The notes: generated by a model not told the origin, from the letters alone. A DNA stretch of 64,000 bases from an uncultured Candidatus Peribacteria bacterium (GCA_964555845.1 CAZKUA010000006.1:8215-72214), one strand, 5' to 3'; counted from the stretch's first letter, positions 1 through 64,000 are shown. A program made the numbers and translations.

Positions 1-638
1 ATAACGTCTTGTAAATTAGAAAGTGGAACTTCTTGAGTAATGGTTTTTTCTCCATAAGCGTCAGCTGGAGCTATTGTTAAGGTCTTTTTTTCTCATAATT
101 TCATTCCCACAACTCCTGCATCAAATCATTTTATCATATTTCAAGCTCATACTTGAAATTCAAGTGGTTCATATTTTCTACCAGATGCTGGGTCGTAATT
201 TTTCATTTTTTTAGCAAATTCTTCAAGCGATGAATCAAAAATTGTACCATCTTCAAGTTTTCAAACATAATCAACTTTAACTGTATTTCAAGTTTGAACT
301 GTATCTCAAACAGGAGTTGAAGAAGGTGCAGAAGTAGTTTCTAGTCAAGTTGTAGAAGTTGCAACTCCTGAAACTTCTCAATTTTTTGGACTCTTTCAAT
401 TTCAGAAAAAATAAAATGCCAAAATTAAAATTAAAACAGCAACTCCAAAAATAGTATAAATTTTGTTAAATTTTACTTTTTTATCCATTACAGTTTCTAC
501 TTCTGTATTCTCAACTTTTGGCGTAACTTTTTTTACTTCTTTGGCTTTAATTTCTTTTGTTTCTACCTTTTTTGCAACCACTTTTTTCTTTGGCGCAACT
601 TTCTTTTTTGTATCCTTTGTAACTTTTTTAGCAACCAT
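1..638 (-). CDS. FKBP-type peptidyl-prolyl isomerase with Lys-rich N-terminus and one TM helix; C-terminus runs off the window
   Basis: Table-25 reading extends the 78-aa track ORF (402-638) into ...VKVDYVGKLEDGTIFDSS...GAGNMIKGFDAGVVGMKLGEKKTLTIAPADAYGE, an FKBP signature. Several conserved Gly are TGA. Confidence 0.8.
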
Positions 639-683
639 AAATATAATTAATTATTAATAAACTCAGTCATTTTATTTATTTTT

Positions 684-1667
684 TTATTTTTTCAAATTTA
701 AAATTTCTTTTTCTAGTGCAAGTCTTAGTGCATTTTCTCAATCTCAAATCAATTCTCCTGTTTTTGACTGTTTGTCTATTTTTAATAAATTAGCAAAAAG
801 AGACTTTAAAACTCAAATATTTCTAACATTTCTTGTCTTTTCTACTAGAAATGGATGAATTTTTAGAACACTCACTATTTCATCTTTTTTAAATCACTTT
901 TCAAGTAAAAAATTTATATACAAAAAATTCCTTAAATTAGACATTATAACAGAAAAGACTTGAAAAATACTATTGCTATCCAAAATTGTTTTTAGTGATG
1001 AAATTCACTTCATTGAATTTAGTTCTTGGATAGCATCAGTTAGCTCAAAAATTGATATTTCTATTTCTGGAATTACGTAATTTCTAATATCATCTTCTGT
1101 AATTCTATCATTCATCTTAAATAAATGAAGCTTATCAATTTCAGCTTCTATTTTATTTAGAGATGAATTTTTGTAATTTATTAGCTTCGAAATGGCACTG
1201 CTATCTATATTTATAAGTCTAGATCTGATATAATTTCTAAGCTCCTCTCACTCAATATTTTTATATTCTTTTACTTGAGCTGTTTCAAGTAATTTCTTAT
1301 AGAGAGATTTTCTCTTATCTGGCGCACTTTCGACAAAAACCAAAATATTATTATCTGGAATTTTGTCCAGATTTTCCAAAATAATTTCGTCAAAATTTTT
1401 GAATTCTTGTATTACTTTTGTACTATCTTCTGTCTTTTCTGTAGCTTTACTTGGAAATCATTCAAGAATAATTAATCTATGAGAACCCAAAAAGGGCATT
1501 GTAGTGAGTTCGGCTGAGATATTTATTTTAGAAATATTATCGCTTGAAAATCTAGAAATATTAAAATCTCAATGTTTTTCGGTAAAAAGAGAAATCCATT
1601 TTAAAAGATCTCTGTTTAGAAAAACCAGATTTTCTCATGTAAAAAATATTAGATTTGATTTTTTCAT
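684..1667 (-). CDS. holA: DNA polymerase III delta subunit-like, 327 aa
   Basis: Continuous table-25 ORF of 984 nt. Size and motifs (PFLGSHRLIILEG, ISIFELTDAI) resemble HolA. Its ATG lies 2 nt after the upstream gene's stop. Confidence 0.6.
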
Positions 1668-1669
1668 AA

Positions 1670-1939
1670 TTATTTCATTTTTCAAATTGCACAAGAAGTA
1701 TAACTAACAGCCTTTCTCATAAAACTTTTTGCAGCCTCAGATCAAACTTCTGGATAACCAAGTGAACAAAGTTTTTCAACTACAGTATTTCTGTCTCAAC
1801 TAAAATTATATTCAATAGATCAAGAGGGAATATCAATTGAAATGTCTGTAGCTCACAAGGCTTCTAGAGCTTTAGTAGCCGTATTTGCGCAACCTCAACA
1901 TTTAATATTTACAACCTGAATTTTTTGTAAAGTGTTCAT
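1670..1939 (-). CDS. Small heavy-metal-associated (HMA)-like protein, 89 aa
   Basis: N-terminal VVNIKCGGCANTATKALE resembles the MxCxxC metal-binding loop, with both Gly encoded by TGA. Length is divisible by 3. Confidence 0.5.
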
Positions 1940-1974
1940 AATATTTTATTTTAAAAAATAATATTTCCTATTAT

Positions 1975-3288
1975 ATGAATTATTTTAAATTTTCTAAATT
2001 TATTTTTGTTTTTGATTTTTTACTAAATAAGAATAAAATAAAAATTGCTTTATTTTTTAACTTCTTTTTTATGATACTATTTTCTTTTAAAAATAAGTTT
2101 ACAGAACTTAAATCAAAACTCACTCAAATGGCTCCAAATGAGCCAATAAGCAAACTTGCTTTTGTAGCGATAATTTTTCTGGATATTTTTATTTTGATTA
2201 CGATATTTACTTGACTTGAGGATCACACAAAACAACTGGCAACGCTCGAAGATTATATTCCTTATAATTGTCGTGATTTGGTTATAGGAGCTGACCAAAA
2301 AACCCCAGAAAATAAAGTAAATCTTTTGAAAAATTATGTAGTTTTTAATACTCCATTTGCGCCGAGCTCGTATGATTATAATCAAATTCCAATTTCTGAA
2401 ATTCATCCAGTTTGTGGGCAAATTAAGACTTATTTAGACGAGATAAATTTAAAAAATTCGGCTATTAATGATTTATATACTTCTTTAAATGAGCTTGAAC
2501 AAAAAAGAAATGTGATTCAAAATGAGCTCGATATTATTAAATCAAATTATGACACTCAAGTTTTAGAAAAAATTGCAAATATGGAGTCAGACGCGATTAA
2601 AACTCAACAGGAAAGATCCTCAAAAACAGACGAGCTCGCAAGTCTAGATAATGAAATAAAAAATATACAAACGACTATTTTGGCAAATGATAAATTTAAA
2701 GGAATTTGGGATTATATAATTTGAAATAATGCCGAAAAACAGAAGCTTTTAGAAAATGATTTTGCTATAGCGGAATTCTGGTATCCAATTAAAAAACTAT
2801 TTATGGAATTAGCATTTTTACTCCCGCTTTTTATAGTTTTCTGGATATGGAATTCTAGGAGTATCGCCAAAAATTCTTGAGTGCAAAGTCTTATTTCATC
2901 TCATCTTTTGGTTATTGCATTTATACCAATTTTTTGGAAAATTCTTGAAACTATTTTTGAGATAATTCCAAAAAGATTGATAGAAAAAATTCTAGAATTT
3001 TTAGTCTCATTTAAACTACTTGCTATTTGGTACTATATATTAGTTTTATTCTGAATTTTAGTGGGGATTGGGGTAATTTATATAATCCAAAAGAAGATAT
3101 TTTCTAGAGATAAATTAGATGAAAAAAGACTCTCAAACGGAGATTGTTGGAATTGCTGAAAACACTTACCACCTAATTCAATTTATTGTCCATTTTGCGG
3201 AGCCCATCAATTTAAAAACTGTCCAAAATGTAAAAAAGAAACTCCAAAAACATCAAAGTTTTGTACTATTTGTGGATTTAAATTTTAA
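1975..3288 (+). CDS. Membrane protein with coiled-coil segment and C-terminal double zinc ribbon, about 437 aa; start uncertain, alternative ATG at 2071
   Basis: Track ORFs 1975-2214 and 2278-2724 are in the same frame and join through TGA. The C-terminus is CWNCG...CPFCG...CPKC...CTICG. Confidence 0.6.
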
Positions 3289-3354
3289 ATAGTTTTGATT
3301 TTTACTTAAGTTGAATATACTTTTTCAAAAAGTTTATATTTTAAATATAAAATT

Positions 3355-3555
3355 ATGAATAATTATAATATTTTAATATCTCAAGAAGAGAAATATTTTG
3401 TTGTAAAAAATATTGATTTATGAATAGTTTCTCAATGAGAAAGTATTGATGACGCCTTGTTTAATATAAAAGAAGCCACTGAATTATTTTTGGAGAAAGA
3501 AAAAGAATATAAAAATGTCTATTCTAGGTCATTTTTAACAACTATTTCTGTGTAA
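3355..3555 (+). CDS. hicB: HicB-like antitoxin (UPF0150 type), 66 aa
   Basis: YFVVKNIDLGIVSQGESIDDALFNIKEATELFLE matches the HicB N-terminal domain pattern. The gene lies 1 nt upstream of hicA. Confidence 0.6.
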
Positions 3556-3909: not shown

Positions 3910-4821
3910 ATGGTAAATAAAAAACCGGGGAATAATGGGAATTTAGGCGATGTTACTTGAGTAAATCAAGAATTATTAAATGCAGTAGAAGCCGAACAAA
4001 ATAAAACTGCTTTATTAATTCAGGATTTATTAAAAATGGCTGAAGATTATGAGAAAAGTATTTCTGAATCTACCGCACAAACTGCCGAACAAGTAGAAAA
4101 AACCAAGAAAACGGTGGAATTACTGCTTGATTTATCTGCAAAAATAACCAATCCAGACAATGATATTTGTGCTGATATTAGTAGTCAATCACTTCATGTA
4201 ATTGGAGAAGCAATCAAAAATCAGCAGTTTTTTGCATCTCAACTTATAGAAAAAAATCAAGAAATTACTAATTTAAAAATACAAACACAGGAATTGACTC
4301 ATAAGGCTTTTTATGATGAACTTACTTGACTAGGAAATAGACATTTATTCAAAAAAACTTTTCTTGCATTCAAGAATGATTTTGTAGAAAAATGACAAAT
4401 ATTTTCAATGGCAATGTTTGATTTAGATGATTTTAAACAAATAAATGATCAATATTCTCATGAGGTATGAGATAAGGCTTTGAATTTTTTTAGTAATAGA
4501 CTAAGGGATTTTTTCTCTGAAAAACTTTGAGAGAAATGAATTTTATTAAGATTATGATGAGAAGAATTTGGTGTATTATCTCAGATCTGAAAAAAAGAGA
4601 TGTATAATTTAATGGAATCTTTTAGAAAAAAAGCTAGTAAAACATATGAATTAAAGCACAAAAAACCTTGAGAGCCAGAAGAAAAAGAGCAAATAAAATT
4701 AACTTTTTCTTGATGAGTAGTTGAATTTAAAGATAAATTAAGTGCAAATCAAATTCATAAAGAGTGTGGCGAAAAATTAAAAGAAGCTAAAAAGAAATGA
4801 AAAAATGTTATTATCAAATAA
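3910..4821 (+). CDS. GGDEF-domain diguanylate cyclase with coiled-coil N-terminus, 303 aa
   Basis: Motifs DELTGLGNR, FDLDDFKQINDQYSHEVGDKAL and RLGGEEFGV are present. The GG of GGEEF is tga tga at 4555-4560. I counted 13 in-frame TGA. Confidence 0.85.
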
Positions 4822-4892: not shown

Positions 4893-5900
4893 ATGCCTTC
4901 CTCCCATAAAAAAACACATGGATTATTTGCTGTAACAGTCGCTATAATCTGAAATTTTATCATAATGATTCTTAAATTTATCTGATTTTTTTTATCAGGC
5001 TCTGGAGTTTTATTTTCTGAAGCAATTCATAGTGTCGCTGATACTTCAAACCAAGTCTTGCTTATGGTGGGACTCAAAAAATCCAGAAAAAAAGCAGATG
5101 CGAATTTCTCTTATTGATATTGAAAAGAAAGATTTTTCCGGGCGATTTTATCAGCTTGTGGGATATTTTTTATATGAGCCGGGGTTACCGTTTACCACTC
5201 CATAGAAAATTTCCTACATCCAATTATTATTGAAAATTCATTTTATGTTTTAATAATTTTAGCTATATCTTTTATTGTAGAATCTATAACTTTATTGATA
5301 GCTATAATTTCAGTTTATGATAGGCAAGACTGATTACTAGAAAGTATAAAAGAGGCAGATAATGCTTCAAAAGCAGTAATACTTGAAGATTCAGTTGCTG
5401 TATTTTGAGTTTTAATAGCTTTTGTGAGTATTTTACTTACAAATTTAACAGGAAAAACTTATTTTGATTCAATTTGATCTTTGATAATTTGAATTTTGCT
5501 TTGAATTGTGGCAATTATTTTGATTATGGAAAATAAAAGTTATCTTCTTGGAAGAGGAATAGATGAGGAATTAAAAGAAGATATAATTGAAACCATAAAA
5601 ACAGATAATTTAATAGAAAAAATTATAGATTTTAAATCAGAAGTAATCGATATAGATTGTTATATTATCAAAGTAGAAGCAGAATTTAATGGATCTTCAC
5701 TGATGAGAGAAATAAATCATAATTGATTTTTTCAAGATGAGTATGAATATATAAAAGAAGATTACAATGAATTTTTAAAATTTTGTGTAGATTATGCTGA
5801 TAGAATTCCTAGAATTATTGGTAAAAGAATTGACGCCCTAGAAAAAAATATCAAAGAAAAACATCCAGAAATTAAACATATTGATATTGAGTTGAATTAG
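4893..5900 (+). CDS. Cation diffusion facilitator (CDF) family metal efflux transporter, 335 aa
   Basis: About six TM helices, the motif SEAIHSVADTSNQ, and a C-terminal cytoplasmic domain. The frame matches track ORF 5508-5726. Confidence 0.8.
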
Positions 5901-6091: not shown

Positions 6092-7666
6092 ATGAAGAAT
6101 CAAGGGAATTTGATACCCATTAATGATTCAAAAACAAGTAGTTTTCTCTCCATAACCCAGACAATACTTTTGTGGTCTTTTTTGATTGTAGGTTTTGCTG
6201 GATGGGAGGCATACCACGCTTATCAATTTAATATAGAAAATGCCCTGGACGTCGCTCGTGATAGCCATAATAAAGATTTGGCTTACAGGCGTTGGGGAAA
6301 TGAGATTGGTGGGGTTTATGTACAAGTTACAGAAAAAACCCAACCAAATCCACTGCTTTCCGGGGTTCCAGAAAGGGATATTATAACTCCTTCTGGCAAG
6401 CATCTTACATTAATGAATCCTGCTTATATGATTCGTAAAGTGTATGATGCAAACAAGGAAAGTTATGGTCTTTTGGGTCACATAACTAGCCTCAATCCAA
6501 TTCGTAAGGAGAATGCTCCCGATAGCTGGGAAACAACTGTTTTACAAAAGTTTGAAAAAGGCGATATTAAGGAATATTTCTCTAAAGAATATATTGGAAA
6601 TGAGGAATATCTCCGGTATATGCGACCAATATTGGTTGATACAAAATGCCTCAAATGTCATGCAAAACAAGGATACAAAGCTGGAGATATTCGTGGTGGC
6701 ACAAGCATTTCTGTACCATTAAAGCCATATAAACTCAAATTCCTTAAGAATTTATTTTGGATAATCTCCCTTTATGGGATAATTCTGGTATTGGGTATAA
6801 TGTACATAACATTGTGTCATAAAAAATCTCTGCAAAATACCAGAATTCGCAAGGAATTTGAACAAAAACAGCAAAAACTCGAAGAAAGACTTCATAAAAT
6901 CCAAAAGCTCGAAAGTCTTGGGGTTTTGGCTGGAGGCATAGCTCATGATTTCAATAATATTTTGATGGTAATTTATGGGAATTGTGATATGATTACTATG
7001 CATCCAGATCCATCACTCACAAGTGAACGAGTTTGTCAGATAAGGCATGCTGCAAAGCGAGCATCTGAAATTTGTAAAAATATGCTTGCCTGTACTGGTA
7101 AGGGTTCAATTAAGAAAAAAAAGATAGATTTGGTGAGGCTGGTTAATGACACTATTGATCTTCTGAAGCCAAAGATAGAGATTAACATTTCTCTTAATTT
7201 CACTCAAAATCCAGAGCCACTTTACACTAACGGCGATATTGATCAGATTCAAGAAGTAATTATGAATTTGATTATAAATGCTATAGAGGCCATTGGTGAG
7301 AATAAGGGCCAAATTACCGTAAGACTCACCCAAAATGGTTTTTCGGGTAAAGACTATTTTGAAGAAGATATTTCGCCCGAGAAATATATATGTATGGAAG
7401 TATCAGACACAGGATGTGGAATGGATGAAGAAGCTCAAAAACGCATCTTTGAACCATTCTATACTACCAAATTCACAGGCCGGGGACTTGGAATATCTGC
7501 AACACTTGGAATTATTAAGCTGCATAATGGCACTTTACAGTTGCTTAGTAGACCAGGTGTTGGCACGACCTTCAGGATTTATCTTCCTGCTTTACAAGAA
7601 GATGAAAAACTTGTGGTCAAGACTAATTCTATAGTGGAGTCAAAGTCCAACAAAAAAATCAAATAA
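6092..7666 (+). CDS. Sensor histidine kinase: N-terminal TM, periplasmic DUF3365-like domain with c-type heme motif CLKCH, TM, HisKA (AHDFNN), HATPase_c; 524 aa
   Basis: Intact ORF even in the standard code, with no in-frame TGA. By my count all 38 Gly are GGN. Visibly higher G+C than the flanks; TAA stop. Confidence 0.9.
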   Translation: MKNQGNLIPINDSKTSSFLSITQTILLWSFLIVGFAGWEAYHAYQFNIENALDVARDSHNKDLAYRRWGNEIGGVYVQVTEKTQPNPLLSGVPERDIITPSGKHLTLMNPAYMIRKVYDANKESYGLLGHITSLNPIRKENAPDSWETTVLQKFEKGDIKEYFSKEYIGNEEYLRYMRPILVDTKCLKCHAKQGYKAGDIRGGTSISVPLKPYKLKFLKNLFWIISLYGIILVLGIMYITLCHKKSLQNTRIRKEFEQKQQKLEERLHKIQKLESLGVLAGGIAHDFNNILMVIYGNCDMITMHPDPSLTSERVCQIRHAAKRASEICKNMLACTGKGSIKKKKIDLVRLVNDTIDLLKPKIEINISLNFTQNPEPLYTNGDIDQIQEVIMNLIINAIEAIGENKGQITVRLTQNGFSGKDYFEEDISPEKYICMEVSDTGCGMDEEAQKRIFEPFYTTKFTGRGLGISATLGIIKLHNGTLQLLSRPGVGTTFRIYLPALQEDEKLVVKTNSIVESKSNKKIK

Positions 7667-11199: not shown

Positions 11200-12933
11200 A
11201 TGAAAGAATTTATTAAAAAAGCAAAAGTATTACTAGAACCTGTAAAATACTCAAAATGATGGTTTTGGGTACTTTTTGGAATGGAAATTTATGACTCACT
11301 CCAAAGTATTTTTCTGATTTATGCAGGATCTATGGTTATTAGCGCGGTGGAAATGAAAAATATAGAAAATTTATATTTCTGGATTTGGGTATTTTTGATA
11401 TTTTTAGTTTTTAATACTCTAAATTCATTGTTTATGGATACCGTTTTGAATATGTTTTCTTTTAATATTTCGCGTGGACTTTCTGAAAAATATTTATGAG
11501 AATATATAAATCTTGATAATACTAAAGTTGAGTCTTTTTGAACGGGGAAAATGAGTAATATTATTTTTAGAGGAATTGAATCTTGGTATCTTAATTTAAA
11601 ATTAACATTAGATTTGACGGCTGAAATATGTGCTATAATTTATATTTTTGTATTAGTGCTTATAAAAGTGCCAAATATCTATTATTTTACAGGATTTATT
11701 GCTTTATTCGTAATAATAATTTTGTTTTTTTCAAAATGATTATCTTGTATTGCAAATATTCGTGACCAAACAAAGGAACTTGAGATAGTTCGTGATGCGA
11801 AGAGAATAAAAATGCTTATGTCTAAATTTGAGATTTTACAAAATGATAAATTTGGAAAAGAAATTGAAGTAATATCAGAATTGCATAATAAGATGATGTA
11901 TCTGTGGGCCAGATGAAATTTCATAAAAAATGCTTGGCAAATCGGATCTTTTATTATTTTAAGTAGTTTTAGGATAATTATTTTTTTAGTTATTTGAGCT
12001 TGAGTAATATCTGGAAATTATACAATCGCTAAGCTTGCTTTATTTCTGTGGCTTCTTGATGTTTTAGGGAAATATTCTTGGAATATTAGAGGATATTTTA
12101 GAGATATATTTTATAATTATATTCACATTGAAAAACTTATTGATACATTTAATTCTATTCCCAGATACCAAGAAGATCCAAATGCTCCAAAATTTGTTTA
12201 TAAATCTTGAGAAATAGTTTTTGATAAAATAGATTTTACTTATGACGGAGGTCAAGAAGTTTTTAAGGATTTTTCACTCATTTTAAATTGATGAAAAAAA
12301 TATGCTTTTGTGTGAGCGAGTGGATGAGGAAAAAGTACATTAATAAAATTAATAGCCTGATATATTAAAGCAAATAGCTGAGAAATTATTATTGATTGAC
12401 AAAAACTTTCAGAAATCTCTCTAAAATCCTATTATCGCCATATCGGATATCTCACTCAAGAGCCATCTGTTTTTGACTGAACAATTATGGAAAATCTCAC
12501 TTATGCTCTGGATTATACCCCAACTCAAGAGCAACTTGATGAGGTTATAAAAAATTCAAAATGTGAATTTATTGAGGAATTTAAGGCATGATTTGAAACT
12601 GAAATTTGAGAGAAATGAATAAAATTATCAGGCGGTCAAAAGCAACGCCTTGCAATAGCAAAAATTATGCTAAAAAACCCAGAAATAATATTGCTTGATG
12701 AGCCGACCTCAGCACTTGACAGTATCTCAGAGCAAGCAATAACAGAAGCACTTCATAATTTATTTAAATGAAAAACGGTTGTTATTATTGCTCACAGACT
12801 CCAGACAGTAAAAGAGGCGGATGAGATTATCGTGATAAAAGATGGAGAAATTTTTGAAAGATGAAATCATGAGCAGTTGAGTAATTTAAATTGAGAATAC
12901 AAGATAATGCTTGATTTACAGACGAGTTTTTAA
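11200..12933 (+). CDS. ABC exporter, fused permease and ATPase (MsbA-like), 577 aa
   Basis: Walker A VGASGGGKST has two TGA glycines. Signature LSGGQKQR and Walker [12 protein letters not shown] are present. Confidence 0.85.
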
Positions 12934-13394: not shown

Positions 13395-15326
13395 ATGCAC
13401 AATCTTCTACAAAGAGAATCTATTAAGATTATTATAAATGCACTTAAGAAATGATATGTAGTTTTCTTTCTGGGACTTATTGCTACGGTTTTTGGCTCAA
13501 TTATCTCGATTATACTTCCGTATTTTGCCAAGCTGGAACTTGACCAGTTGGTAGAGAAAAAAACAGCAGTTTTTTTTGGCATAAATTTTGTTCCTTTTCA
13601 TTTTTTTCTGCTTATACTTGTAGTTATTTTTGTTATATCTTTTTTAGATAAGATTATTTCAGAAGTTATTCAATGGTTTTTAGAAGAACGAGAGGAAATT
13701 TTCACTCACGAAACACAGCTTATTTATCTGAATAGAATGTCTCATATGGAAGTTGGACTCTCGCTTTCTGAGGGTTTTCAAAATATTTTACGTTTTGTTT
13801 CAGATAAACTTGGAAATATATTGAAAACCATTCTTGGTATACCAAAATGAATGCTGGGCATGACAATTCAGTTTATCGGAATAAGCTCAATTCTTCTTTC
13901 TATTAATTATATGATTTTTATTGTGGTGCTTTTTGGAGGATTTGTTACTTTTATTTTGGATAAAATAAAACATCATGATGATATGCAAAAATGAAATGAT
14001 CCGGAATTGAAAAGAATAGGTCAAATTACATGGTCAATTCCATGGGAATTACAAAGAAGTCTTGCGGAACTTTCCCGTAATGGAGCTACTAAGAAAATGC
14101 TTAACTCGTTCACTCAGGCAATACATAAAAAACAAGTGCTTTTACGAATATATCAAAAAAAGAATATTTGGACACAATCTTTTATTTTTATAGTTGATAA
14201 TTTTATATCTTTTCTTGTGAAAGCATGAGTCGCATATACTGTTTTTCAGGGGACTCAATCAGTCTGAGTAATGACAATGGCAGTTTTATATATTTCTAAA
14301 CTTTCTTCGCTTTTTCGTGAGAGTTCAAAAATCTTTTTTGATTTCAAAACTATAGAATTTGATCTAGATCTTTTTGACGAATTTCTAAAATTTATCAAGC
14401 CTGCATGAATAGAAAAGGGAATTATAGTTACTTCTGAAATTATATTTAGGTGAGTTTCATTTTCATATCCAAATACTCATGCAATGGAACAATCTTTTTA
14501 TAATATTATTAGGGAAACTCTATCAACCCTAAAGAAATGATCATCGGGATATCGAACATGGGTTATAGATGAAATGAAAAAAGATATTAAAGAATTTGAT
14601 AATAAAATTGAAGAAGAAACAGGAATAATATTAAAAGATTTTAGTTTCACTTTTGTCCCCGGAAAAATTTATGGTATTGTTGGAAAAAATTGAGCAGGAA
14701 AGACAACACTTATAACACTTTTATCTGGATTTTATAGATCATATAAAGGAGAAATTCTTTTTGATAAAGTAAACACAAGAAATTGGAATATGGAAGCATT
14801 CGCGAAAAATATATCTGTTATTTCACAATCTCCTTATATTTATAATGCCTATGGGGATTCATCTATTCGAAATAATTTAACTCTTGGTATAGATAGAAAT
14901 GTATCTGATGAGGAAATGTATGAACTTCTTGAAACATTTTGACTTGCAAAAAAAGTAAGAAAATCTATTAAAGGACTTGATTCTGAAGTAAAAAATGAAA
15001 TCGATCTTTCCGGAGGTCAATACCAACTTTTGGCAATTATTCGCATAATCCTACAAGATCGTCCTATTTTAGTATTTGATGAAGGAACCAACCAGCTTGA
15101 TGCCGAAAATGAGGCACTCGTGATGAAATATCTCCTCAAAAAATGTCATTCAAAAATCATCTTTTTTATTACTCATCGCATGAATACAATTGCCAGGGCT
15201 GATGAGGTTCTCTGTATCGAAGATTGAATAATAAGCGCTCATGGAAAACCTAAAGATCTCCTAGAACAAAATGATAATCCATATGCACGATTTTATAGAA
15301 CTCAAATTTTGCATGAAGAGATATAA
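13395..15326 (+). CDS. ABC exporter, fused permease and ATPase, 643 aa
   Basis: Walker A GKNGAGKTT, signature LSGGQYQ and Walker B LVFDEGTNQLD. The frame matches track ORFs 13548, 14007 and 15030. Confidence 0.8.
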
Positions 15327-16549: not shown

Positions 16550-18374
16550 TATGTGTTGAATTTTTTGATATATTTGAAATAAAAATGCGACAAGCAAGTT
16601 AATCCATTGACTTGAGAAACTCGAATATAGATGATATGATTCATCGGGTTTTGTTGTTGGAAAAGATTGAGATTTGAAATTAATTAAATCAGTTGGAAAA
16701 GTTTCAAATTTAAGTGAAAAAAGTACAAATACATTAGCAGAAAATGAGACTTTTTCTTATGGAATAGCTCATACTCGCTGGGCAACTCACGGAGGAGTGA
16801 CAGAGTTTAATTGTCATCCTCATTATTCAGAAAATGAACGCATTTTTCTTGTTCATAATTGAATTATAGAAAATTATCGTGAGCTAAAAGATGAGCTTCT
16901 TAAGAAATGATATAGTTTTTATGGGGAGACAGATTCTGAAGTTGTTGCTAAGTTAATCGAAGAAAATTGGGATCAAAATTTACTTAAAACTGTTGAAAAA
17001 GTATTACCAATACTCGAGTGAGCTTATGCATTTTTATTTATTTCAAGAGATAATCCAGATGAAATTATTTGAGTAAAATATTGAAGTCCTTTGGTTTTTG
17101 GATATTCAAAAGATAAGAGTGAATTTTATTTTTCTTCTGATACTCAAGCTCTAGCTTGAATTGTGGATGATGTAATTTTTCTTGATGATGGTGAGTTAGT
17201 TTATATCAAAAATAATGATTATACAATAAAAAGTGAGTGAAAATTAATTTCAAAATCAGCCGAGAAAATTGATGTTGCAAGCTTAAAGGCAGAGAAATGA
17301 GATTTTAAACATTTTATGTTAAAAGAAATTTTTGAACAACCAAAAGTATTAGAAGATGTTTTTAGATGAAGAATAGATTTTACTAATTCTCGCCTTAATG
17401 CTGCCGCTTTTGAGGAGCTTGATAAACATGTTTTTTCTAAAATTACTTTCGTTGCCTGTGGAACAAGTTATCACGCTGGATGGCTCGGGACTTATTGGTT
17501 TGAGGATTTGGCAGATATGGAATCTCGCGTGGAAGTTGCGAGTGAATTTGAATACAAAAATATTAAAATAGACTCAGAAACTCTCTATGTTTTTATCTCT
17601 CAATCAGGAGAAACTGCCGATTCTATCGAGCCTCTTAAATATTTGAAATCTAAATGAGCTTCAACTTTTTGAATTGTAAATGTGGTAGGTTCAACCATTT
17701 CAAGACTTACTGATTTTGGTCTTTTTACCAGAGCTGGGACAGAGGTTTGAGTGGCATCTACTAAGGCTTTTACAGCTCAAATATGCACAATTTTGCTTCT
17801 TGCTCTTTATTTTGGAGAGAAAAATTGAAATCTTTCAAGACAAAAATACAGACAAATTATCCAAGAATTACATTCTATTCCAGAGAAAATAAATGAACTT
17901 TTATCAACTTCTGATAATATTAGAAATATAGCAGAAAATATTAAAAATTATAAACAATTTTTCTTTTTAGGAAGACATCTGGAGCTTGCTATAGCATATG
18001 AGTCAAGCCTAAAATTCAAAGAAATTTCATATCTTAATTCTCAAGCACTCCCAAGTGGAGAGCTTAAACATTGATCTCTTGCTTTAGTTGATGAGGATTT
18101 TCCATCTATGATATTTATGCCAAATGATTTTTTATATGAAAAAAATCTCTCATCTGTCCAAGAAGTAAAAGCAAGAAAATGAGAAATTCTAGCAATTTCC
18201 GACAAAAATGTAGATAGTGCCACTTGGAATATTTCAATTCCACAAACTCTAGAAGAGCTATATCCATTCCTCACAGCAATTGCCGGGCAACTAGTGGCTT
18301 ACCATACAGCAGACTTACTTTATAGAAATATTGATAAACCTCGTAATCTCGCAAAAAGTGTAACTGTGAAATAA
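16550..18374 (+). CDS. glmS: Glutamine--fructose-6-phosphate aminotransferase carrying an apparent +1 frameshift near codon 24
   Basis: [24 protein letters not shown] is read in the frame of 16550. EYRGYDSSG...LAKSVTVK* is read one frame over, matching track ORF 16674. The total of 1825 nt is not divisible by 3. Confidence 0.85.
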
Positions 18375-18932: not shown

Positions 18933-19313
18933 ATGGAAGCATCTATTTTTTTGGCAAGGTTTTTATGACCTTTGTTTATAGTTATTTCTCTTAGTATTAT
19001 TATAAATGGAAATACTTTTGATCACATCATAAAGGAATTTCCAAAAAATTCTTATGTCCTGTATTTATCTGGATTAATGGCTTATGTTATGGGTGCGCTT
19101 ATGCTTTTAAATTATAATTCATGGGCATTAAATTGATTTATAATTATCACAATTATGTGATATTTGGCTTTAATAAAATGAATTCTCATTTTATTATTTC
19201 CAGAACGGATGATAAATATGGCAAAATGAATGAAATTTAGTAGATGACTTTTAATTTTTGTAGGAATAATATATTTTATATTGGGAGCTTATTTATGTTT
19301 TCTAGGATTTTAA
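18933..19313 (+). CDS. Small membrane protein with 4 predicted TM helices, 126 aa
   Basis: Continuous table-25 ORF with a hydrophobic pattern. No family recognised. Confidence 0.45.
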
Positions 19314-20287
19314 ATCTCACCTAAAAATCTCTCCATATCTGGTTTTAATTTAGCTTCAAATGTGAGCTTGACTCTTTTTGTTGGATGAATAAACGATATT
19401 TTATATGAATGTAAAAATTGCCTAGAAACTCCGAAATTTCTCTTTAAAAAGCTATTTTCTCATTTATTTCAATAAGTATTATCTCAAACGACAGGATGAC
19501 CAATGTGGCTTAAATGAATTCTAATTTGGTGCATTCTTCAGGTCTCGAGCTTACATTCAAGAAGTGAATATTTTTCGTGAATATTTTCTTTTATGACTTT
19601 GTAATGAGTTATTGCCTTGTCTCATAATTTATTATCTATTTTTATTTTGTTTTCAGATTTCGCATCTTTAATTCTAAAAATTTTATCCTTAATGGTTCAG
19701 GTTTTTTCAGTTAAAGTCCCAATACAAACTGCCAAATAATATTTCTCGATTTTATTATCTTGTAATTGCTTTAACATCGAGTCTAGCGCTGGTTTTGTTT
19801 TTGCTATCATTATAATTCCTGAAGTGTCTTTGTCTATTCTATGGATTAGAGACGGCTTAAATGTGAGAGAATTTAGTTTATTTCACAAATAATCATGAAC
19901 TTGTTGAATTAGTGAAATTTCATTTGTCTTAAAATCTCCAGGATGAACTATAGTTCCTGGATTTTTGTTTATAATAAGCAAATCTCCGTCCTCATAAATT
20001 ATATCTTTTTTATCTAAAAAATTAGTCAATGGTAGTGAATGCAGGCCTGCATTCACTACTTCTTTTTTTGCAGTAAGAAGCTCAAATTCATCATCATTTA
20101 GAAATATTTTTATTTCATCTCAAATTTGTATTTTATATTCATTATCTTGTCTTTTTCAATTTACTTTTACCTTGTTTTTGCGATTAATTTTGTAAATTAG
20201 AGAAAGACTTGAATTAACAAGAAGTTTTTTCAAGAATTTATCGAGCCTTTGATCGGCATCATTTTCTTCTATTTTAAATATTTTCAT
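19310..20287 (-). CDS. RluA-family 23S rRNA pseudouridine synthase (RluC/D-like) with S4 domain, 325 aa
   Basis: HRIDKDTSG and GRMHQIRIHL are present. The frame was checked at 19843. Confidence 0.85.
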
Positions 20288-27131: not shown

Positions 27132-27153
27132 AATTTTTTGGGTTATAAATTAA

Positions 27154-32656: not shown

Positions 32657-32684
32657 TTGACTCTCCAAAAATATGGACTACAAT
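32657..32684 (+). promoter_or_regulatory. Sigma70-type promoter for the first tail-fibre-like gene
   Basis: TTGACT, 16-nt spacer, TACAAT. Confidence 0.55.
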
Positions 32685-32720
32685 ACTCCAGATTTAATTT
32701 ACAATTTAATCTATAATTTT

Positions 32721-37225: not shown

Positions 37226-38260
37226 ATGAAGCTCCCAAAAAATTTATATTCCCGCCTAACTCTAATAACTGTAGCCACAGTTGTAACTTGATATGCTATA
37301 ATATATGCATACACAAATTTACCAACTCAGGAATCTTGAAATCCTCTTACAAAAACTATTTGGAATGATGTAGTAAATAAAATAAATGATATCTGAACAA
37401 GAACTGACTGAATTACCAGTAGTGTTTGAGGAAAAGTATGAGTTTGAACTACAAATCCATATGCTAAAATACATTCAATGTGACAAACATTTATGATGTG
37501 ATCTACGCCTGACTTAAATTGGTGATCAGTTTGAAGTGTATTCCAATGAGAATTCTGAGCCGCAAGCGGAAATACCTATACAAAATTAGAATCATTTGTG
37601 AACTGAGGATCTGGGTACGGTGATTTAGTTTTAAATCCAGGATGATGAAATGTTAATATTGGTCCATATGAATTATGAGGAAGTAAATTAAAAATTGTAC
37701 AACCTACAGATAATCTCCGGACAGCTTTAATAAAAAGCACTAGTCCAACTACATGATTAAATTTCTGATTAACAGTTAGAGCGTGAACAAATTCAGCTGA
37801 TTCAGGATTTTTAGTTATGGATAAAAATTCAACTGTATATCAATTTTATGTTAGATGAGATGGTAATGTTTGAATTTGAACAAATAATCCTTGAACAGAT
37901 AAGCTTTATGTTAACTGAACTGCTAGAGGAACTTCATGGACAAATATATCAGATCAAAGATATAAAAAGAATATAACTCCAATAAATAATTCTCTAGATA
38001 AAGTATTAAAACTTAATTGAGTAACTTTTGATTGGAGAGTCGATGAATTTAAGAATAAAAATTTCCCAGAATGAAAACAGGTTTGATTTATAGCCCAAGA
38101 AGTGGAAAAAGTAATCCCTGAAGTTGTAACAACTGATGGAGAATGATATAAATGAGTAGAATATGCGAATATTACTGCATTACTTGTAAATGCAATAAAA
38201 GAACAACAAAAGCAAATTGAGGAATTAAAAAGCGAGATAAGGGAATTTAAAAATAAATAA
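37226..38260 (+). CDS. Tail-fibre-like surface protein with S74 chaperone domain, paralog of 32721-33740; 344 aa
   Basis: SDQRYKKNI...LNGVTFDWR...VGFIAQEVEKVIPEVV...VEYANITALLVNAIKE. It shares the N-terminal WN..V..IND motif with its paralog. Confidence 0.8.
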
Positions 38261-38815: not shown

Positions 38816-38884
38816 AATATATAAAATTAATAATAAATAAAAGTTTAAATTCAAGCTTGACCGAGAGATAAGGAAGGGCATTCT

Positions 38885-40083: not shown

Positions 40084-40779
40084 TTATACATAATATGCTT
40101 TTGGTGGATTTATCTTTTTTCCAAAATGTTTTTTAAATTCACTGAGAGTAAATATTTTGTCTGCAGGAAAATCTCGCGGTCATTCCCGGGCTTTTTCAAA
40201 TCATAAAATCTCAAAGATAACTTGTTTTCATCAATGAATAAGTATATTTAAAATTCTTTCATTCATTTTTTTATCTCAAAAATCTATAGAAACTCGCTCA
40301 TCCCAAGCAGTAGAAGCAAAATTCTCTCAACTATTTTTGTAAAAAAAGACTTGTGAAGGCTCTTGTGTAAGTTTTCATCTATCTCTTAATACACCTTCTC
40401 GCATTAGACTATTAATTATACTTAAAGTTTTATTATGCAATTCATCCCATTGTTCTCAGTAAATTCTTTTGACATTTTGTTCTACAATTAATTCAAAATC
40501 ATTTAACAAGTTATTTAAACGAATTTCTTTTTGTTTTTGCATTTCTAGTTCGTGATTTTTTCTCTTTTTTTCAAATAATTTTTGTCAAATATACTCAGCT
40601 TTTTTCTCTCACTTTAATATTTCATTTGCTCTACAAGAAAACATAGATTTCAGCATACCAAGCTCATTTTCTCTGTAAGGCTTTTCAATATATGCCATTT
40701 CCTCAGCTATTTGAGAATCTATTATTTTTCCATTATTATCCTTTAATCCATAAGGAAAGTCAACAAAATTCGTTGTCAT
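40084..40779 (-). CDS. Hypothetical protein, 231 aa; N-terminal module paralogous to 46310-47461
   Basis: MTTNFVD...IDSQIAEEMAYIEKPYRENELGMLKSMF...ANEILKG. Confidence 0.5.
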
Positions 40780-46309: not shown

Positions 46310-47461
46310 CTATATATTCAATAAACTTTGTCTTAATTCATCTCTTTCAATTTTCTGTAATCTCTCTTGTTCTTTTCTTGCTTGCTCTTCGGCTTCTTTT
46401 CTCTTTCTTTCTTGTTCCATCTTTTCTTCTGCCTCCTTTTTAATTCTATATTGCTCTGCAATTTCTTGTAATCTCTCTTTTTCTTCATTCTCTAAGAAAA
46501 TTTTATATTCTTCTTTATTCATATTATATTGAGATTTTTGTTCTCTCTCAAATTCATTAATTTCATCTCAAAAATATTTCATAAAATGATTATTTGCCCT
46601 AAGATTATCAGTTGGCATACAATCAAGAAGTCATTTCTCTCCATTTTTTCTTAAAGTTGCTTCGATAAAGACTTTTGTTCAATATTCTTTTAAATTATAT
46701 CAAGAATCATCACAGTATTTTATTATCATAGCGCTTGCTAGAGACTTATTCATCATACATTTTTCAAGATAACTGTTAAATATATTTCATACTCTATAAA
46801 TACTTATACATCTTTTACTTCTATAAAAGCTATTTTCATTTTTTCTATCTTTTTCACTTAACATAAACAAAAACAGTTCATCATCTTCAGTTGTTCTCCA
46901 ATCAGTTGGTATCATAAGAATTTCTCGCATATTATCACTCGCGTCAATTCTATTATAGAAATTTTGGTATAAAGCCCGTCTAGCTTTTCTATAAATAATA
47001 TATGAATCATCCGAGCGTTCTGCATTCGCTTTATTGGCAAAGTCATATAAGAAATTTATTGCTTCTCATAATTCAGGTTGAGTTTGAAGATACTTAATAT
47101 ATATATCTAATTTCTTTAATTCCTGCGGATTTCTTAATTCAAATTCTTCTTTTTCTTTGATGAGTCTTTCGGTTTCTTTATCTCTTTTTATTCTATCTTC
47201 TTCAGCTTTTCTCTCTTCAGCTATTCTTAATTCCTCTGCAAGTCTTAATTTTTCTTCTAATTCTTTTTCAAACTCTATTTTTTTATTTAAGAATTCTCCT
47301 GATTTTTCTTGTCATTTTAATATCTCGGAAGCTCTTCATATGAATATTGATTTTATAATTCCTAATTTATTTTCCCTAAAAGGCTTCTCAATATATGCCA
47401 TTTCCTCGGCTATTTCATAATCTATTACACGACCGTCTGTATCTAAAAATTTCGTTGTCAT
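46310..47461 (-). CDS. Hypothetical coiled-coil protein, 383 aa; N-terminal module paralogous to 40084-40779
   Basis: MTTKFLD...IDYEIAEEMAYIEKPFRENKLGIIKSIF...ASEILKG. In frame with track ORF 46310-46522. Confidence 0.55.
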
Positions 47462-49712: not shown

Positions 49713-49713
49713 A

Positions 49714-49744
49714 AAATCCCACAGGCGCTCAGCCCATGGGATTT
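49714..49744. terminator. Candidate hairpin between convergent genes
   Basis: aaatccca-15 nt-tgggattt followed by a T run. Confidence 0.45.
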
Positions 49745-49772
49745 CAAATTTTTTTATCATACGAGTGGAAAT

Positions 49773-50639
49773 CTAACTTCAGATCCCACTCACAATAATT
49801 TTGATGTCTTCGGACCTAAGGAGACCGAAACCAAGTTGGTTCAAAATCTCCATATTGGCTAGTTCCAGAGCGTCCATTCTGGATATTCCTGTCCTTATAT
49901 TTATTTGATGAAAATCTCCTTGTCCCAATATCGCCTTGTAGGCCTCATGGTTTTGAGGTCGAAATTCGACATGGAGATTCCCGTCGAAATGCTCTTCCTT
50001 TCTCCATCCTGATTCTTCAGAGCTGAAGATACTGATTTTGGCAGGAATTTCAGCCGGTTCCAGTTTTGCGACCGGGAAATACAAATCTTCCAGAGTCTTG
50101 AATCCCAAGGGAACGATTACTTCCTCTGTTGTCACTTTACCATCCGCTTTTGAAAACCACACAAAATTGGGATCAGGCTTGGATAAGCTTGAAGATATCG
50201 ACCAGGTATTGATAGTTAAGGCAATAACAACAAACACTGGAAGATATTTCCTGTGTTTATCCCACAAATATCCTCCGAAAATTGCAAAGAGAGCCATGAG
50301 ACAAAAGCTAAATCCTACTATTGTAATAACAGGACCATTCCCAAAAATAACACCGCAAATAGAAATAATAATACCAATGATACCAAGAAAAAGAGTTTCT
50401 CCACTATTAGGCAATGATAGTACAAAAATGAAAACCCCGATAATGAGATTGGTTAAAACCAACCTTTCTATTGATATCTGAAAATGTGGCTGGTGTAGCC
50501 CATAGTAGGCGATACCAACCAGTATTGCAGTCATCATTATTGTCAGCATTGTGGAAAGCCGATTTTCTGGCTTCCAGATAAGGTTAAGGAACGAAGAAAC
50601 AGACCATTGTGTTTTTGGTACAACATTTGTTGCTTCCAT
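49773..50639 (-). CDS. Membrane protein of unknown function (4-5 TM helices plus soluble C-terminal domain); 288 aa in table 25, 286 aa in the standard code
   Basis: Intact ORF in the standard code with no internal TGA. By my count all 22 Gly are GGN. G+C is higher than the flanks. The standard-code TGA stop (49779-49781) reads as Gly in table 25, so translation would continue to the TAG at 49773-49775. Confidence 0.75.
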
Positions 50640-50646
50640 GATTTTT

Positions 50647-50654
50647 CCCTCCTT
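50647..50654 (-). promoter_or_regulatory. Strong Shine-Dalgarno site AAGGAGGG 7 nt upstream of the ATG at 50639
   Basis: The plus strand reads ccctcctt. Confidence 0.7.
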
Positions 50655-50716
50655 GCGGGATATTTTATTTTTGTCTTGATATTTGTATTCGCTGAAAATT
50701 ATTTCCAGTAATTCTA

Positions 50717-50744
50717 CTTATAATCAAAAACATATTTTTGTCAA
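50717..50744 (-). promoter_or_regulatory. Sigma70-type promoter for the membrane-protein gene
   Basis: On the minus strand: TTGACA, 16-nt spacer, TATAAG. Confidence 0.5.
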
Positions 50745-50772
50745 TAGAAAATTTGGGATTATTTTGGTAAAT

Positions 50773-50833: not shown

Positions 50834-51409
50834 ATGGCAAGCATTAAATGAACTCAGACAGAGAAAAATTTGTTAAAATCTTTCGCGGGGGAATCTCAGG
50901 CTAGAATGCGTTATGATTATTTTGCAAAAATTGCAAAAAGTGAATGATATGAACAAATTAGAGCATTTTTTGAAGAGACAGCACTAAACGAAAAAGAACA
51001 TGCAAAGAGATTTTTTAAATTTCTTGAATGAAGTATGGTAGAAATTACTGCTACTTATCCGGCTTGAAAAATTGGGACAACACTCGAAAATCTGGAGGCT
51101 TCGGCAAATTGAGAGAATGAGGAATGGACTTTACTTTATCCAGAATTTGCGAGAATTGCGGATGAAGAATGATTTGGAGAAATTGCGAAAGTCTGGAGAA
51201 ATATAGCACTTGTTGAGAAAGCTCACGAGACAAGATATAGAAAACTTCTTGAAAATATTAAAAATAATGAAGTTTTTGAGAAATCTGAAATAAAAAAATG
51301 GAAATGTGCGAATTGTGGATATATACATACTGGAAAATCTGCTTTAGAAGTTTGTCCAAGCTGTGATCATCCAAAATCTTACTTTGAAATTTGGGTAGAG
51401 AATTATTAA
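50834..51409 (+). CDS. rbr: Rubrerythrin, 191 aa
   Basis: Ferritin-like ExxH motifs (EKEHAKRF, EEW...E..H) and the C-terminal rubredoxin CANCGY...CPSCDHP. Confidence 0.9.
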
Positions 51410-58587: not shown

Positions 58588-59898
58588 ATGCAAGAAAAAT
58601 ATCTACTAGAAAAATGTGATATAAAAAAATTATCCATAACACAAGAAAAGATTGATATTTACTTTAAAGAAAAACTAAATAAATATTCTGATGAAGAATA
58701 TTTATATTGGGATAAGATTAAATATAAAAATATTCCTGAATGATTTAATGATAATAAGGAATTATGGGGAATAATTAAAATTATGAGAATTCCAAACATA
58801 ATATCGCCAATAAAAACTGAAACATGAAATTTTTTTAAGTTTTGAGAATTACAGTTTTCAAAAGAGCTTTTGCATGAAATTGATAAAAATACTTCTTGAA
58901 CCTTTTTTACTAGTATTTCAGAGACTGATAAAAAATTATTTATAGCAAATTGAACGCTTGAAGAAGCTATAAGTTCAAGTCAATTAGAATGAGCTTCAAC
59001 TACAACAAAAAATGCCAAAGAAATGATTCAAAAGTGAAAAAAACCAACAACAAAAGATGAACAAATGATTTTAAATAATTTTCATGCGATGAATTATATA
59101 AAAAATGATTTAATTAAAAAAGAACTTGAAATTTGAGATTTATTATATTTACAATCGGTTTTAACAAAAGATACAATTGAAAAAGATGAAATATGAAGAT
59201 TTAGAAAGGATTCTGATAATATAATTGTAGAATTTGAATGAAAAATTACACATATTCCACCAAATGAAAAATTTCTAGCCACTGAAATAAAAAATTTCAT
59301 TGATTTTGCAAATGATAAATGAAGTTTTGATATGTTTGTACATCCTATTATAAAAGCAATTTTGATACATTTTTGGATTTGATATTTACATCCTTTTTGT
59401 GATTGAAATGGGAGAACGGCAAGGGCTTTATTTTATTGGTATTTGTTAAAACATGATTATTTTGGATTCTCATATATTCCATTATCATCAACAATCAAAA
59501 AATCAAAAATAGATTATGCAAAATCATATATTTATAGTGAACAAGATGATTTAGACGCTAATTATTTCATAAATTATAATCTTAGAAAAATTAAATTAGC
59601 ACTTAATAAATTCAAAGAAGAGATAACTATAAAATTTAAACAAAATCATAATAATTTAAAAAAATTAGCACATCTCGATTTAAATGATAGACAAAAAAAA
59701 TTAATAAATTATTTTTTAGAAAATAAAGATTCATTTACAAATCCAATAACTCATATGAATTATTATAGTCTTTCAAAGAAAACAGCCATTGTAGATTTAA
59801 AAACTCTAGAAAAAAAGTGATTTATATTCTCCATAAAATCTTGAAGAAATCTTAATTACTTTCCTGTAGACAATTTATCTGATAAAATCAGTAAATAA
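58588..59898 (+). CDS. Fic-family protein (AMPylase-type) with C-terminal winged-helix domain, 436 aa
   Basis: HPFCDGNGRTAR with a TGA Gly (59389-59424). The frame matches track ORF 59443. Confidence 0.85.
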
Positions 59899-60703: not shown

Positions 60704-60740
60704 ACATAAATATTTTTTTTGAAATTAGGCCCGGATTTTT

Positions 60741-61405: not shown

Positions 61406-61429
61406 TTTATAATTTAATTATAAAATAAT

Positions 61430-61546: not shown

Positions 61547-61551
61547 AAAAT

Positions 61552-61575
61552 AAAATCCTAGCTTGCTAGGATTTT
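61552..61575. terminator. Bidirectional rho-independent terminator
   Basis: aaaatcctag-cttg-ctaggatttt. Confidence 0.75.
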
Positions 61576-61580
61576 ATTTT

Positions 61581-62531: not shown

Positions 62532-62558
62532 AAATAAAATTATTAACAAACACCTCAC

Positions 62559-62609
62559 ATTATATCATTTTTCCATATTTTTGCAAAATTATCATATAAT
62601 CTTTAATAT
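62559..62609. promoter_or_regulatory. Back-to-back promoters sharing one palindromic -35 box, TTGCAA (62581-62586)
   Basis: Minus strand: TTGCAA, 16-nt spacer, TATAAT (62559-62564). Plus strand: TTGCAA, 17-nt spacer, TAATAT (62604-62609). Confidence 0.55.
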
Positions 62610-62675
62610 AAGAAGTTAAATGAAGATAAATTAAAAAATTATTTTGTTTTTTAGGGTTTTTAATTAATATAAAAA

Positions 62676-62880
62676 AGCCAAGATAACATTTTTAAATTAT
62701 TATTTTCTCATAATAAAAATTAAAGGGCAGTTTTACAACTGCTCTCGCCCTTAATGTTTATTATGGGAGAAAAATAGTTATCTTGGCTGACGACTAGAGT
62801 TGTTTATTAAAACTGCCCTTTTTGTTAGCCAAGATTCCAATGTCTTTTTTGGCGTGTTTATTTGATAAATACGCCTTTTA
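62676..62880 (+). promoter_or_regulatory. Structured leader or candidate ncRNA upstream of the EcoRI-like methyltransferase
   Basis: 12-bp perfect pairs 62676-62687/62777-62788 and 62723-62734/62809-62820 are interleaved. There is a nested helix (62703-62717/62757-73), a direct repeat agccaagat (62827-62835) and a terminator-like hairpin (62851-62875) 6 nt before the ATG. Confidence 0.5.
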
Positions 62881-62881
62881 T

Positions 62882-63832
62882 ATGGAAAAGAAATCTAAAA
62901 ATAAAAATCTAAATAATGCAAATACTGCTAAAAAGGATGAATTCTATACACAATTATCAGACATAGAAAAAGAACTAGGTCACTACAAAGAACATTTTAA
63001 ATGAAAAACTATTTTCTGTAATTGTGACGATCCAGAAGAAAGTAACTTTTGGAATTATTTCGCTTTAAATTTTGAGCATCTTTGACTAAAAAAGTTAGTC
63101 GCTACTCATTATGAAACAGAAAAACCCTCATATAAATTAGAAATTGTATGAGATATAAACAATGATTGAAAAATAAATAAACTTGATACTATAAAAACTC
63201 CTCTAAAACAAAATTGAGATTTCAGAAGTCCTGAATGTATCGAAATATTAAAAGAAGCCGATATAGTAATTACAAACCCGCCATTTTCACTATTTAGAGA
63301 ATATGTTGCACAACTTTTTGAATATGATAAAAAATTCATAATTTTAGGGAACTTAAATGCTATAACATATAAAGAAATTTTTAAGCTTATAAAAGAAAAT
63401 AAAATATGGTCTTGAGCCACTCTTGATGGTAGAAATATATGGTTTAGAATACCGGATACTTATGAAAAATATCATAAAATTGAAAACTGAATTAAATATG
63501 CTTTTGTGGCAAGTACAATTTGGTTTGCCAATTTAGACTATAAAAAAAGACATGAAGATTTAATTCTATATAAAACATACAACGAAGAAGAATATCTAAA
63601 ATATGATAATTATAATGCAATAAATGTAAACAAAACAAAGAATATTCCTATGGATTATAAATGAGAAATAGGTGTTCCTATAACCTTTTTACTTAAATAT
63701 AATCCAGAACAATTTGAAATTATTTGAATTGATAGAGTATTAGTGCAAGAATTAACAGGAAAAGTAACTCGTTTTCATATAGATTGAAAAGAAATTTATG
63801 CTCGTGTAATTATCAAAAACAAAAAACTTTAA
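62882..63832 (+). CDS. Adenine-specific DNA methyltransferase, EcoRI-methylase-like family, 316 aa
   Basis: VITNPPFSLFREY catalytic motif (frame checked at 63272) and the N-terminal KKDEFYTQ pattern. Confidence 0.7.
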
Positions 63833-63852
63833 TTTTTTAACAATATTTATTT

Positions 63853-64000
63853 ATGAAAATAGAATTAAAAGAAATTGCAATTAGAGAAGTTGCAAATGGA
63901 TATGTAAACGATAATGAAGAGTGAGTTGTCGGATTTGGCGGAAGGCTAAATATTCGCCCAAAATACCAAAGAGAATTTGTGTATAAAGATAAACAAAGAG
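63853..64000 (+). CDS. N-terminal fragment of a DUF262/ParB-Srx-fold-like protein; continues beyond the window
   Basis: GRLNIRPKYQREFVYKDKQR resembles the DUF262 IPxYQRxYVW box. Confidence 0.35.

Follow-up and report, generated by a model that had tools for sequence, protein, structure and literature searches.

Evidence for glycine at UGA, and probably tryptophan at native CGG, in a 64,000-nucleotide stretch of an uncultured bacterial genome

Genes of the window and their in-frame TGA codons

We asked which genetic code is used by a 64,000-nucleotide stretch of DNA from an uncultured bacterium recorded as Candidatus Peribacteria (GCA_964555845.1 CAZKUA010000006.1:8215-72214), referred to below as the window. 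It has a G+C content of 27% and spans positions 8215-72214 of contig C6 of a 96.6%-complete genome whose assembly comprises 35 contigs and 1.22 Mb. The original prediction, made from the sequence of the window, held that TGA is read as Gly throughout, as in genetic code table 25, and placed the DNA in Gracilibacteria or Absconditabacteria. Findings discussed below support Gly at UGA in native genes, and indicate that the rare codon CGG is probably read as Trp in these same genes.

All 4 of the motifs originally quoted for Gly were present, each in frame with a long TGA-containing open reading frame (ORF). The N-terminus of GlmS, MCGIFGYIG, is written ATGTGTTGAATTTTTTGATATATTTGA at positions 16551-16577 of the forward strand, and contains 3 TGA codons. 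It opens the glmS gene (16551-18374, + strand), which encodes 607 amino acids (aa) and bears 21 in-frame TGA codons. The quoted motif was correct, but its quoted start at 16550 was one base early, in a frame that is closed. The GGEEF active-site motif (LGGEEF; 4552-4569, + strand) lies in a diguanylate cyclase gene (3910-4821), and both of its Gly residues are TGA. The Walker A motif gtgtgagcgagtggatgaggaaaaagt (12310-12336, + strand) belongs to an ABC exporter gene with 22 TGA codons (11200-12933), and the Fic motif HPFxDGNGR, written catcctttttgtgattgaaatgggaga (59389-59415, + strand), to a gene at 58588-59898, with TGA specifying the Gly that follows Asp. Genes for an RluD-type pseudouridine synthase (19310-20287, - strand) and a rubrerythrin (50834-51409, + strand) contain 9 and 6 TGA codons, respectively.

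When frames of at least 100 aa were measured from stop to stop, they covered 22% of the window under table 11 compared to 92% with TGA taken as sense. For frames of at least 300 aa, coverage was 4% under table 11, and 75%, 4% and 9% with TGA, TAG and TAA taken as sense, respectively. With TGA as sense, the ORF fragments fused, as originally described, into 48 non-overlapping and tightly packed genes that occupy 88.5% of the window (~18,900 codons), most of them with clear Pfam families; stops were TAA (n=39) and TAG (n=8). Under table 11, the window instead fell into 36 ORFs of at least 100 aa, totaling 5,264 aa, and only 2 of these exceeded 200 aa. Every downstream reading of this DNA must therefore use UGA = Gly, as had been argued, and ideally CGG = Trp in native genes as well.

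The 48 genes contain 693 in-frame TGA, 570 GGN and 147 TGG codons. With TGA counted as Gly, this amino acid accounts for 6.7% of codons, while the 3.0% obtained without TGA is implausible. TGA represents 55% of Gly codons in the window and 59% genome-wide, making it the commonest Gly codon. Opening TGA yields the same ORF map whichever residue is inserted, and the map is equally compatible with UGA = Trp, the reading of table 4 (Mycoplasma/Spiroplasma and some insect endosymbionts). Under table 4, however, Trp would reach 4.4% of residues in the window.

The amino acid at TGA

Three independent lines of evidence pointed to Gly, none of which relied on a database translated with table 25. In the first, TGA was replaced by X in the query proteins, which were aligned to solved structures of organisms with the standard code. 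TGA fell on Gly at 15 of 21 positions in GlmS compared to E. coli GlmS (and on Trp at none), at 6 of 9 in the RluD-like protein compared to E. coli RluD, at 6 of 6 in rubrerythrin compared to that of Desulfovibrio, and at 11 of 15 aligned positions in the ABC exporter compared to ABCB19. Pooling these 4 alignments, 38 of 51 TGA codons lay on Gly and 0 of 51 on Trp. The remaining 13 fell on Ala, Ser, Pro, Thr, Leu, Tyr or Arg at variable positions. We found nothing that contradicts UGA = Gly.

We likewise examined the 21 TGA columns of GlmS in 76 standard-code glmS genes from Cloacimonadota, Pelagibacteraceae, Chloroflexota and other groups. Residues in these columns were 62.8% Gly and 0% Trp, and 9 columns were invariant Gly; columns occupied by GGN codons in the window glmS were 61% Gly in the same set. 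Columns of Trp residues beneath TGA had been named as one observation that would speak against the original prediction, and neither the structures nor the 76 GlmS proteins provided any. Of 362 non-TGA codons that lie opposite a window TGA in the glmS loci of 24 relatives, 223 were GGN and a single one was TGG. For ~6 of these loci extraction of the longest ORF took a neighboring ORF, which added noise but left the result unchanged.

Codon exchange was measured against a congeneric genome (G001), of which ~776 kb was rebuilt; alignment of 475 genes provided 157,781 codon pairs. TGA was conserved in frame 5,235 times. Among 1,890 TGA codons that had changed, 1,331 were GGN in the other genome and only 14 were TGG. 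TGA/TGG is a third-position transition and is synonymous under table 4. It was nevertheless exchanged at just 0.2% of TGA sites, compared to 8.6% of AGA sites for AGA/AGG. TGG itself, which represents 0.78% of codons, was strongly retained (816 conserved, 78 changed), in agreement with the view that it still serves at Trp positions. The lack of TGA on Trp, the scarcity of TGA/TGG exchange and the Gly-type tRNA discussed below lead us to reject UGA = Trp, to which we assign only a very slight probability.

The same comparison bears on a second alternative, namely that the standard code applies, that the TGA codons are real stops, and that the window is decayed or mis-assembled pseudogene DNA. 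This view is consistent with the near absence of long ORFs under table 11. It fails to account for the retention of thousands of in-frame TGA codons between 2 species, or for the tendency of those that changed to become GGN. Moreover, full-length matches to GlmS, ABC, RluD, rubrerythrin, MraY and aminoacyl-tRNA synthetase proteins all cross TGA codons. Taken together, conservation and exchange patterns, on which the meaning of this codon rests, support the conclusion that UGA codes for Gly in native genes.

The translation machinery for UGA

No tRNA gene was found inside the window. Elsewhere in the genome, we identified a tRNA with anticodon UCA on contig C10 (c[15158,15236]). It bears G1:C72, C2:G71, G3:C70 and the discriminator U73, the same set of Gly identity elements that is present in tRNA-Gly(UCC) of this genome, in contrast to both tRNA-Trp(CCA) genes, which bear A1:U72 and G73. 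The tRNA(UCA) identity elements are hence those of Gly, not Trp. The 2 tRNA-Trp(CCA) genes (C4:41560-41634 and C27:394-468) differ from each other at acceptor pair 6:67 and in the T-stem, and could represent a duplication, strain heterogeneity or contamination of the bin.

ARAGORN labels the UCA tRNA 'SeC', a label based on the anticodon only. It would fit a variant of the standard-code explanation in which this molecule is a selenocysteine tRNA. However, selenocysteine tRNAs have a different architecture from this molecule, which measures 79 nucleotides and combines an ordinary 7-bp acceptor stem with a short variable arm, and 693 selenocysteines in 64 kb would be absurd. We therefore rejected the selenocysteine tRNA on the basis of architecture and codon count, and regard the standard code, with or without it, as having a vanishingly small probability.

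A single locus for a class-I release factor was present (C22:4820-5878). Its product scored 429.6 bits against a prfA cut-off of 423, and 239.7 bits against a prfB cut-off of 370. It contains the tripeptide PET, which fits the P-x-T signature taken to mark RF1, and lacks SPF, taken to mark RF2. The universal GGQ motif of this RF1 is itself written TGA-TGA-CAA. RF2 (prfB) was not found in the 96.6% complete genome, the unassembled 3-4% lying outside the search. The 2 features that the original prediction had proposed to look for, a tRNA-Gly(UCA) and loss of prfB, were thus both observed.

Loss of RF2 is common to table 4 organisms, which share with this one the capture of the UGA stop and an AT-rich, reduced genome. 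They differ in that the captured codon here is Gly rather than Trp, in that the tRNA bears Gly identity elements, and in that TGG and TGA do not exchange. Given a tRNA(UCA) with Gly elements and RF1 as the only class-I release factor, the mechanism is therefore the published one, in which UGA is decoded by tRNA-Gly(UCA), RF2 has disappeared and termination at UAA/UAG falls to RF1. UGA would have been captured as a Gly codon: GlyRS is expected to charge the tRNA(UCA), which carries the Gly identity set and should decode UGA; RF2, the competitor for this codon, would be gone, and RF1 would terminate all genes at UAA or UAG. We infer both the charging of this tRNA and the amino acids actually inserted.

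CGG in native genes

Using Codetta, Shulgina and Eddy 2021 (PMC8629427) predicted that Absconditabacteria read UGA as Gly and both CGA and CGG as Trp, and that CGG is read as Trp in some Gracilibacteria; we therefore tested both codons here. CGG is very rare: it makes up 4.9 of every 10,000 codons in the genome and occurs 9 times in the window. In native genes, CGG aligned with W of E. coli MraY, with W of 2 ArgRS (E. coli among the references), and with F, W, W, F and F in 5 SerRS. It never aligned with R in these proteins or in GluRS.

Compared to the congener, 49 CGG codons had changed: 25 were exchanged with TGG, 1 with AGG and 0 with AGA. All but 2 of the 25 CGG/TGG exchanges were in low-G+C, TGA-rich native genes, while the few CGG/CGA, CGG/CGT and CGG/CAG exchanges were mostly in TGA-free, G+C-rich ORFs. 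Exchange with TGG affected 27.5% of CGG sites, in line with the 33.6% for CTA/TTA, a synonymous first-position C/T exchange, and not with the 0.7-3.7% for non-synonymous exchanges.

A tRNA(CCG) gene at C19:9120-9196 bears A1:U72 and G73. Both elements are kept, with compensatory stem changes, in 6 genera belonging to 2 families of the order. According to PMC8629427, CGG = Trp is recognized by a tRNA(CCG) that has G73 and lacks A20, with A/G1:U72 as a supportive feature. In the mechanism that we propose, native genes would use the very rare CGG as Trp, served by this tRNA(CCG) with its Trp-type A1:U72 and G73.

Several observations weigh against Trp at CGG. The D-loop of tRNA(CCG), AAUUAGAA, lacks G18 and by simple numbering has A at position 20, and the anticodon retains C35. 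A20 and C35 are Arg identity elements, and ArgRS could charge this tRNA. In addition, the Arg-type tRNA(UCG) of this genome could wobble onto CGG, and CGG decoding may therefore be ambiguous. The CGG column in GluRS is variable (L/Q), and hence uninformative. Finally, 6 native CGG codons lie in the window, at 5139-5141 (in a cation efflux gene), 19206-19208 and 37718-37720 on the + strand, and at 38861-38863, 40186-40188 and 46976-46978 on the - strand, and none occupies a diagnostic column. The evidence for Trp at CGG hence comes from elsewhere in the genome, and on that evidence these 6 codons are probably read as Trp rather than Arg.

The main competing explanation for this codon is that the code is exactly table 25, with UGA = Gly and CGG = Arg, and that the CGG/TGG pattern represents mutational noise at a rare codon. 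The possible A20, the C35, and a D-arm and anticodon arm like those of tRNA-Arg(UCG) are all in keeping with that explanation, as are a CGG on a conserved Arg in a probably imported kinase gene (see below) and the CGG/CGA or CGG/CGT exchanges in TGA-free genes. On the other hand, it does not predict W, or F/W in SerRS, at native CGG codons to the exclusion of R, nor the invariance of A1:U72 and G73 in tRNA(CCG) across the 6 genera. If CGG were Arg, the ratio of TGG to AGG exchanges should be ~0.1, a rough estimate for which we assumed a transition/transversion ratio and a strength of selection rather than taking a tool result; the observed 25:1 is ~250-fold off. Moreover, PMC8629427 predicts this same reassignment in Absconditabacteria and in some Gracilibacteria. 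We accordingly consider exact table 25 unlikely, albeit deserving of some weight. The original proposal of code 25 stands with respect to UGA = Gly, but table 25 is probably inexact, since native CGG behaves as Trp. It is very nearly right for the window, in that it would mistranslate ~5 codons per 10,000, corresponding to the 6 native codons listed above.

As for the origin of tRNA(CCG), the view that it is a duplicated tRNA-Trp was unsupported, since it is no closer to tRNA-Trp than to the Arg tRNAs, with low identity to either (40-48 of 77 positions). The resemblance of its D-arm and anticodon arm to those of tRNA-Arg(UCG) suggests that it may have been derived from an Arg tRNA by an identity switch at the acceptor end (A1:U72, G73).

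Two further sets of genes are distinguished by their CGG codons. Pilin-like proteins encoded at C5:47594-49072, C1:140921-142702 and C15:2060-4390, with an N-terminal prepilin-type helix and Cys-rich C-terminal domains, have the highest CGG density among native genes, with 3-5 codons each, clustered near the C-terminus. Clusters of TGA-free ORFs at C2:103749-118196, C1:59030-60522 and C1:157562-158035 have a G+C content of 39-52% and are 77-97% identical to the congener; the exchange partners of CGG in these clusters are CGA, CGT and CAG, not TGG. They may be spurious ORFs over ribosomal RNA genes, or a shared foreign island.

CGA remains arginine

CGA aligned with invariant R residues of MetAP and Pol I, and in comparison to the congener was exchanged with AGA 20 times and with TGG 0 times. 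The tRNA(UCG) bears A73 and A20. CGA/TGA exchanges (n=13) affected 13% of CGA sites, but only 0.18% of TGA sites, which is the usual non-synonymous level for TGA. A reassignment of CGA, either to Trp as in Absconditabacteria or by drift toward Gly, was ruled out by the invariant Arg columns and by this low rate. CGA thus remains Arg, served by an Arg-type tRNA(UCG).

A split between CGA and CGG was argued in PMC8629427 to be hard when tRNA(UCG) is present, and tRNA(UCG) is present here. As a tentative model, which we view as possible but doubtful, the CGR box may be split in this genus: CGG would be read as Trp by a dedicated tRNA(CCG), and CGA as Arg by a tRNA(UCG) that is expected to wobble onto CGG. 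CGG would then be ambiguous (Trp/Arg), unless a modification of U34 restricts the Arg tRNA, and imported standard-code genes would be mistranslated. If this model is true, the altered code constitutes a measurable barrier to gene import.

Two probable imports written in the standard code

Two genes of the window depart from the pattern described above. The first (6092-7666, + strand) encodes a histidine kinase with a Tll0287-like/DUF3365 sensor followed by HisKA and HATPase domains. It contains 38 GGN codons and no TGA (binomial P = 7e-14 relative to the 55% TGA share of the window), has a G+C content of 36.6%, and is preceded by a GGAGG Shine-Dalgarno site. The congener has no copy of the kinase at the syntenic position. 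Its CGG codons at 6614-6616 and 7481-7483 fall in columns where 117 and 70 of 119 homologs, respectively, have Arg; the first of these residues is Arg175. The named homologs belong mostly to Desulfuromonadales and other Desulfobacterota, but the best are only 46-48% identical, too distant to point to a donor.

The second gene (49773-50639, - strand) encodes a 288-aa protein for which no Pfam match was found. It contains 22 GGN codons and 1 TGA (P = 3e-7), has a G+C content of 39.7%, bears a strong AAGGAGGG Shine-Dalgarno site, and is carried on a clean single-gene insertion of 1056 bp relative to the congener (49713-50768). Its only TGA (49779-49781) is a former stop that is now read through for 2 codons to a TAG. 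Genome-wide, a Shine-Dalgarno-like motif precedes 1.4% of native-like genes, compared to 10 of 28 TGA-depleted genes.

The simplest explanation for both genes is recent import from donors that use the standard code. The host machinery decodes them, yet they provide no evidence for code 25. The original view that the entire window is read in code 25 consequently holds for the machinery, which decodes all of it, but not for these 2 genes, which are still written in the standard code. They illustrate how the 2 codes are incompatible: their glycines are not written as TGA, the TGA stop of one is read through, and strict decoding of CGG as Trp would insert Trp at the near-invariant Arg175 of the kinase.

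Certain other TGA-depleted genes are not G+C-rich, for example those for a 398-aa protein on contig C28 and a 773-aa protein on contig C20, and the ABC gene at 13395-15326 of the window. Such genes may instead be native, with high expression and an avoidance of TGA.

Placement and relation to known codes

The closest match to the window GlmS, at 92% identity, was from a metagenome-assembled genome (MAG), Candidatus Gracilibacteria bacterium isolate SO_2016_LW3 bin 25, assigned to the same genus by tool classification. Subsequent matches were 57-58% identical and came from records labelled SR1 and Peribacteria. All 25 relatives in the same family and order with a full-length or near-full-length GlmS match had TGA inside glmS. 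With a Candidatus Gracilibacteria MAG as the nearest named genome by GlmS, the original placement in Gracilibacteria or Absconditabacteria is supported.

The organism shares with table 25 (Candidate Division SR1 / Gracilibacteria; Campbell et al. 2013, Rinke et al. 2013, as cited in PMC8629427) the use of UGA as Gly, a tRNA-Gly(UCA) with the acceptor-end set listed above, and the retention of RF1 without RF2. It also resembles table 25 lineages in its small, low-G+C genome and in its nearest named relative. In contrast, table 25 keeps CGG as Arg, while native CGG is probably Trp here. With the code predicted for Absconditabacteria, it shares UGA = Gly, probably CGG = Trp, low G+C, the extreme rarity of CGG, and a tRNA(CCG) with G73 and A1:U72, but differs in that CGA is Arg, which fits the pattern of 'some Gracilibacteria' in PMC8629427.

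The organism is a member of a known UGA = Gly lineage, with what is probably the already predicted CGG = Trp variant, lacking reassignment of CGA. Neither recoding is new in kind: descriptions of UGA = Gly date back to 2013, and the prediction of CGG = Trp to 2021. The best explanation for the window is that it belongs to the ordinary chromosome of an uncultivated member of the Gracilibacteria/Absconditabacteria lineage, with 27% G+C and a genome of ~1.2 Mb. As a whole, a chromosome of this lineage with UGA = Gly, CGA = Arg and probably CGG = Trp in native genes accounts best for the findings, and we hold this explanation with very high confidence.

Other features

Additional features were noted in the window and elsewhere in the genome. 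Window genes at 24831-32505 (- strand), 32673-33740 (+ strand) and 37226-38260 (+ strand) include those for 2 large PKD-domain surface proteins, one of which has a T4SS-pilin-like N-terminus. Two proteins of the same set end in a Peptidase_S74 (endosialidase chaperone) C-terminal domain, and the second of these has 30 TGA among 344 codons. Lastly, the coding-like motifs 'CHFERSEKS' and 'FDLKGFLV.TRND' are repeated in several small ORFs (C1:35586-36380, C1:178874-179281, C3:60078-60398, C6:7066-7737 and others), and probably represent a dispersed repeat element rather than genes.

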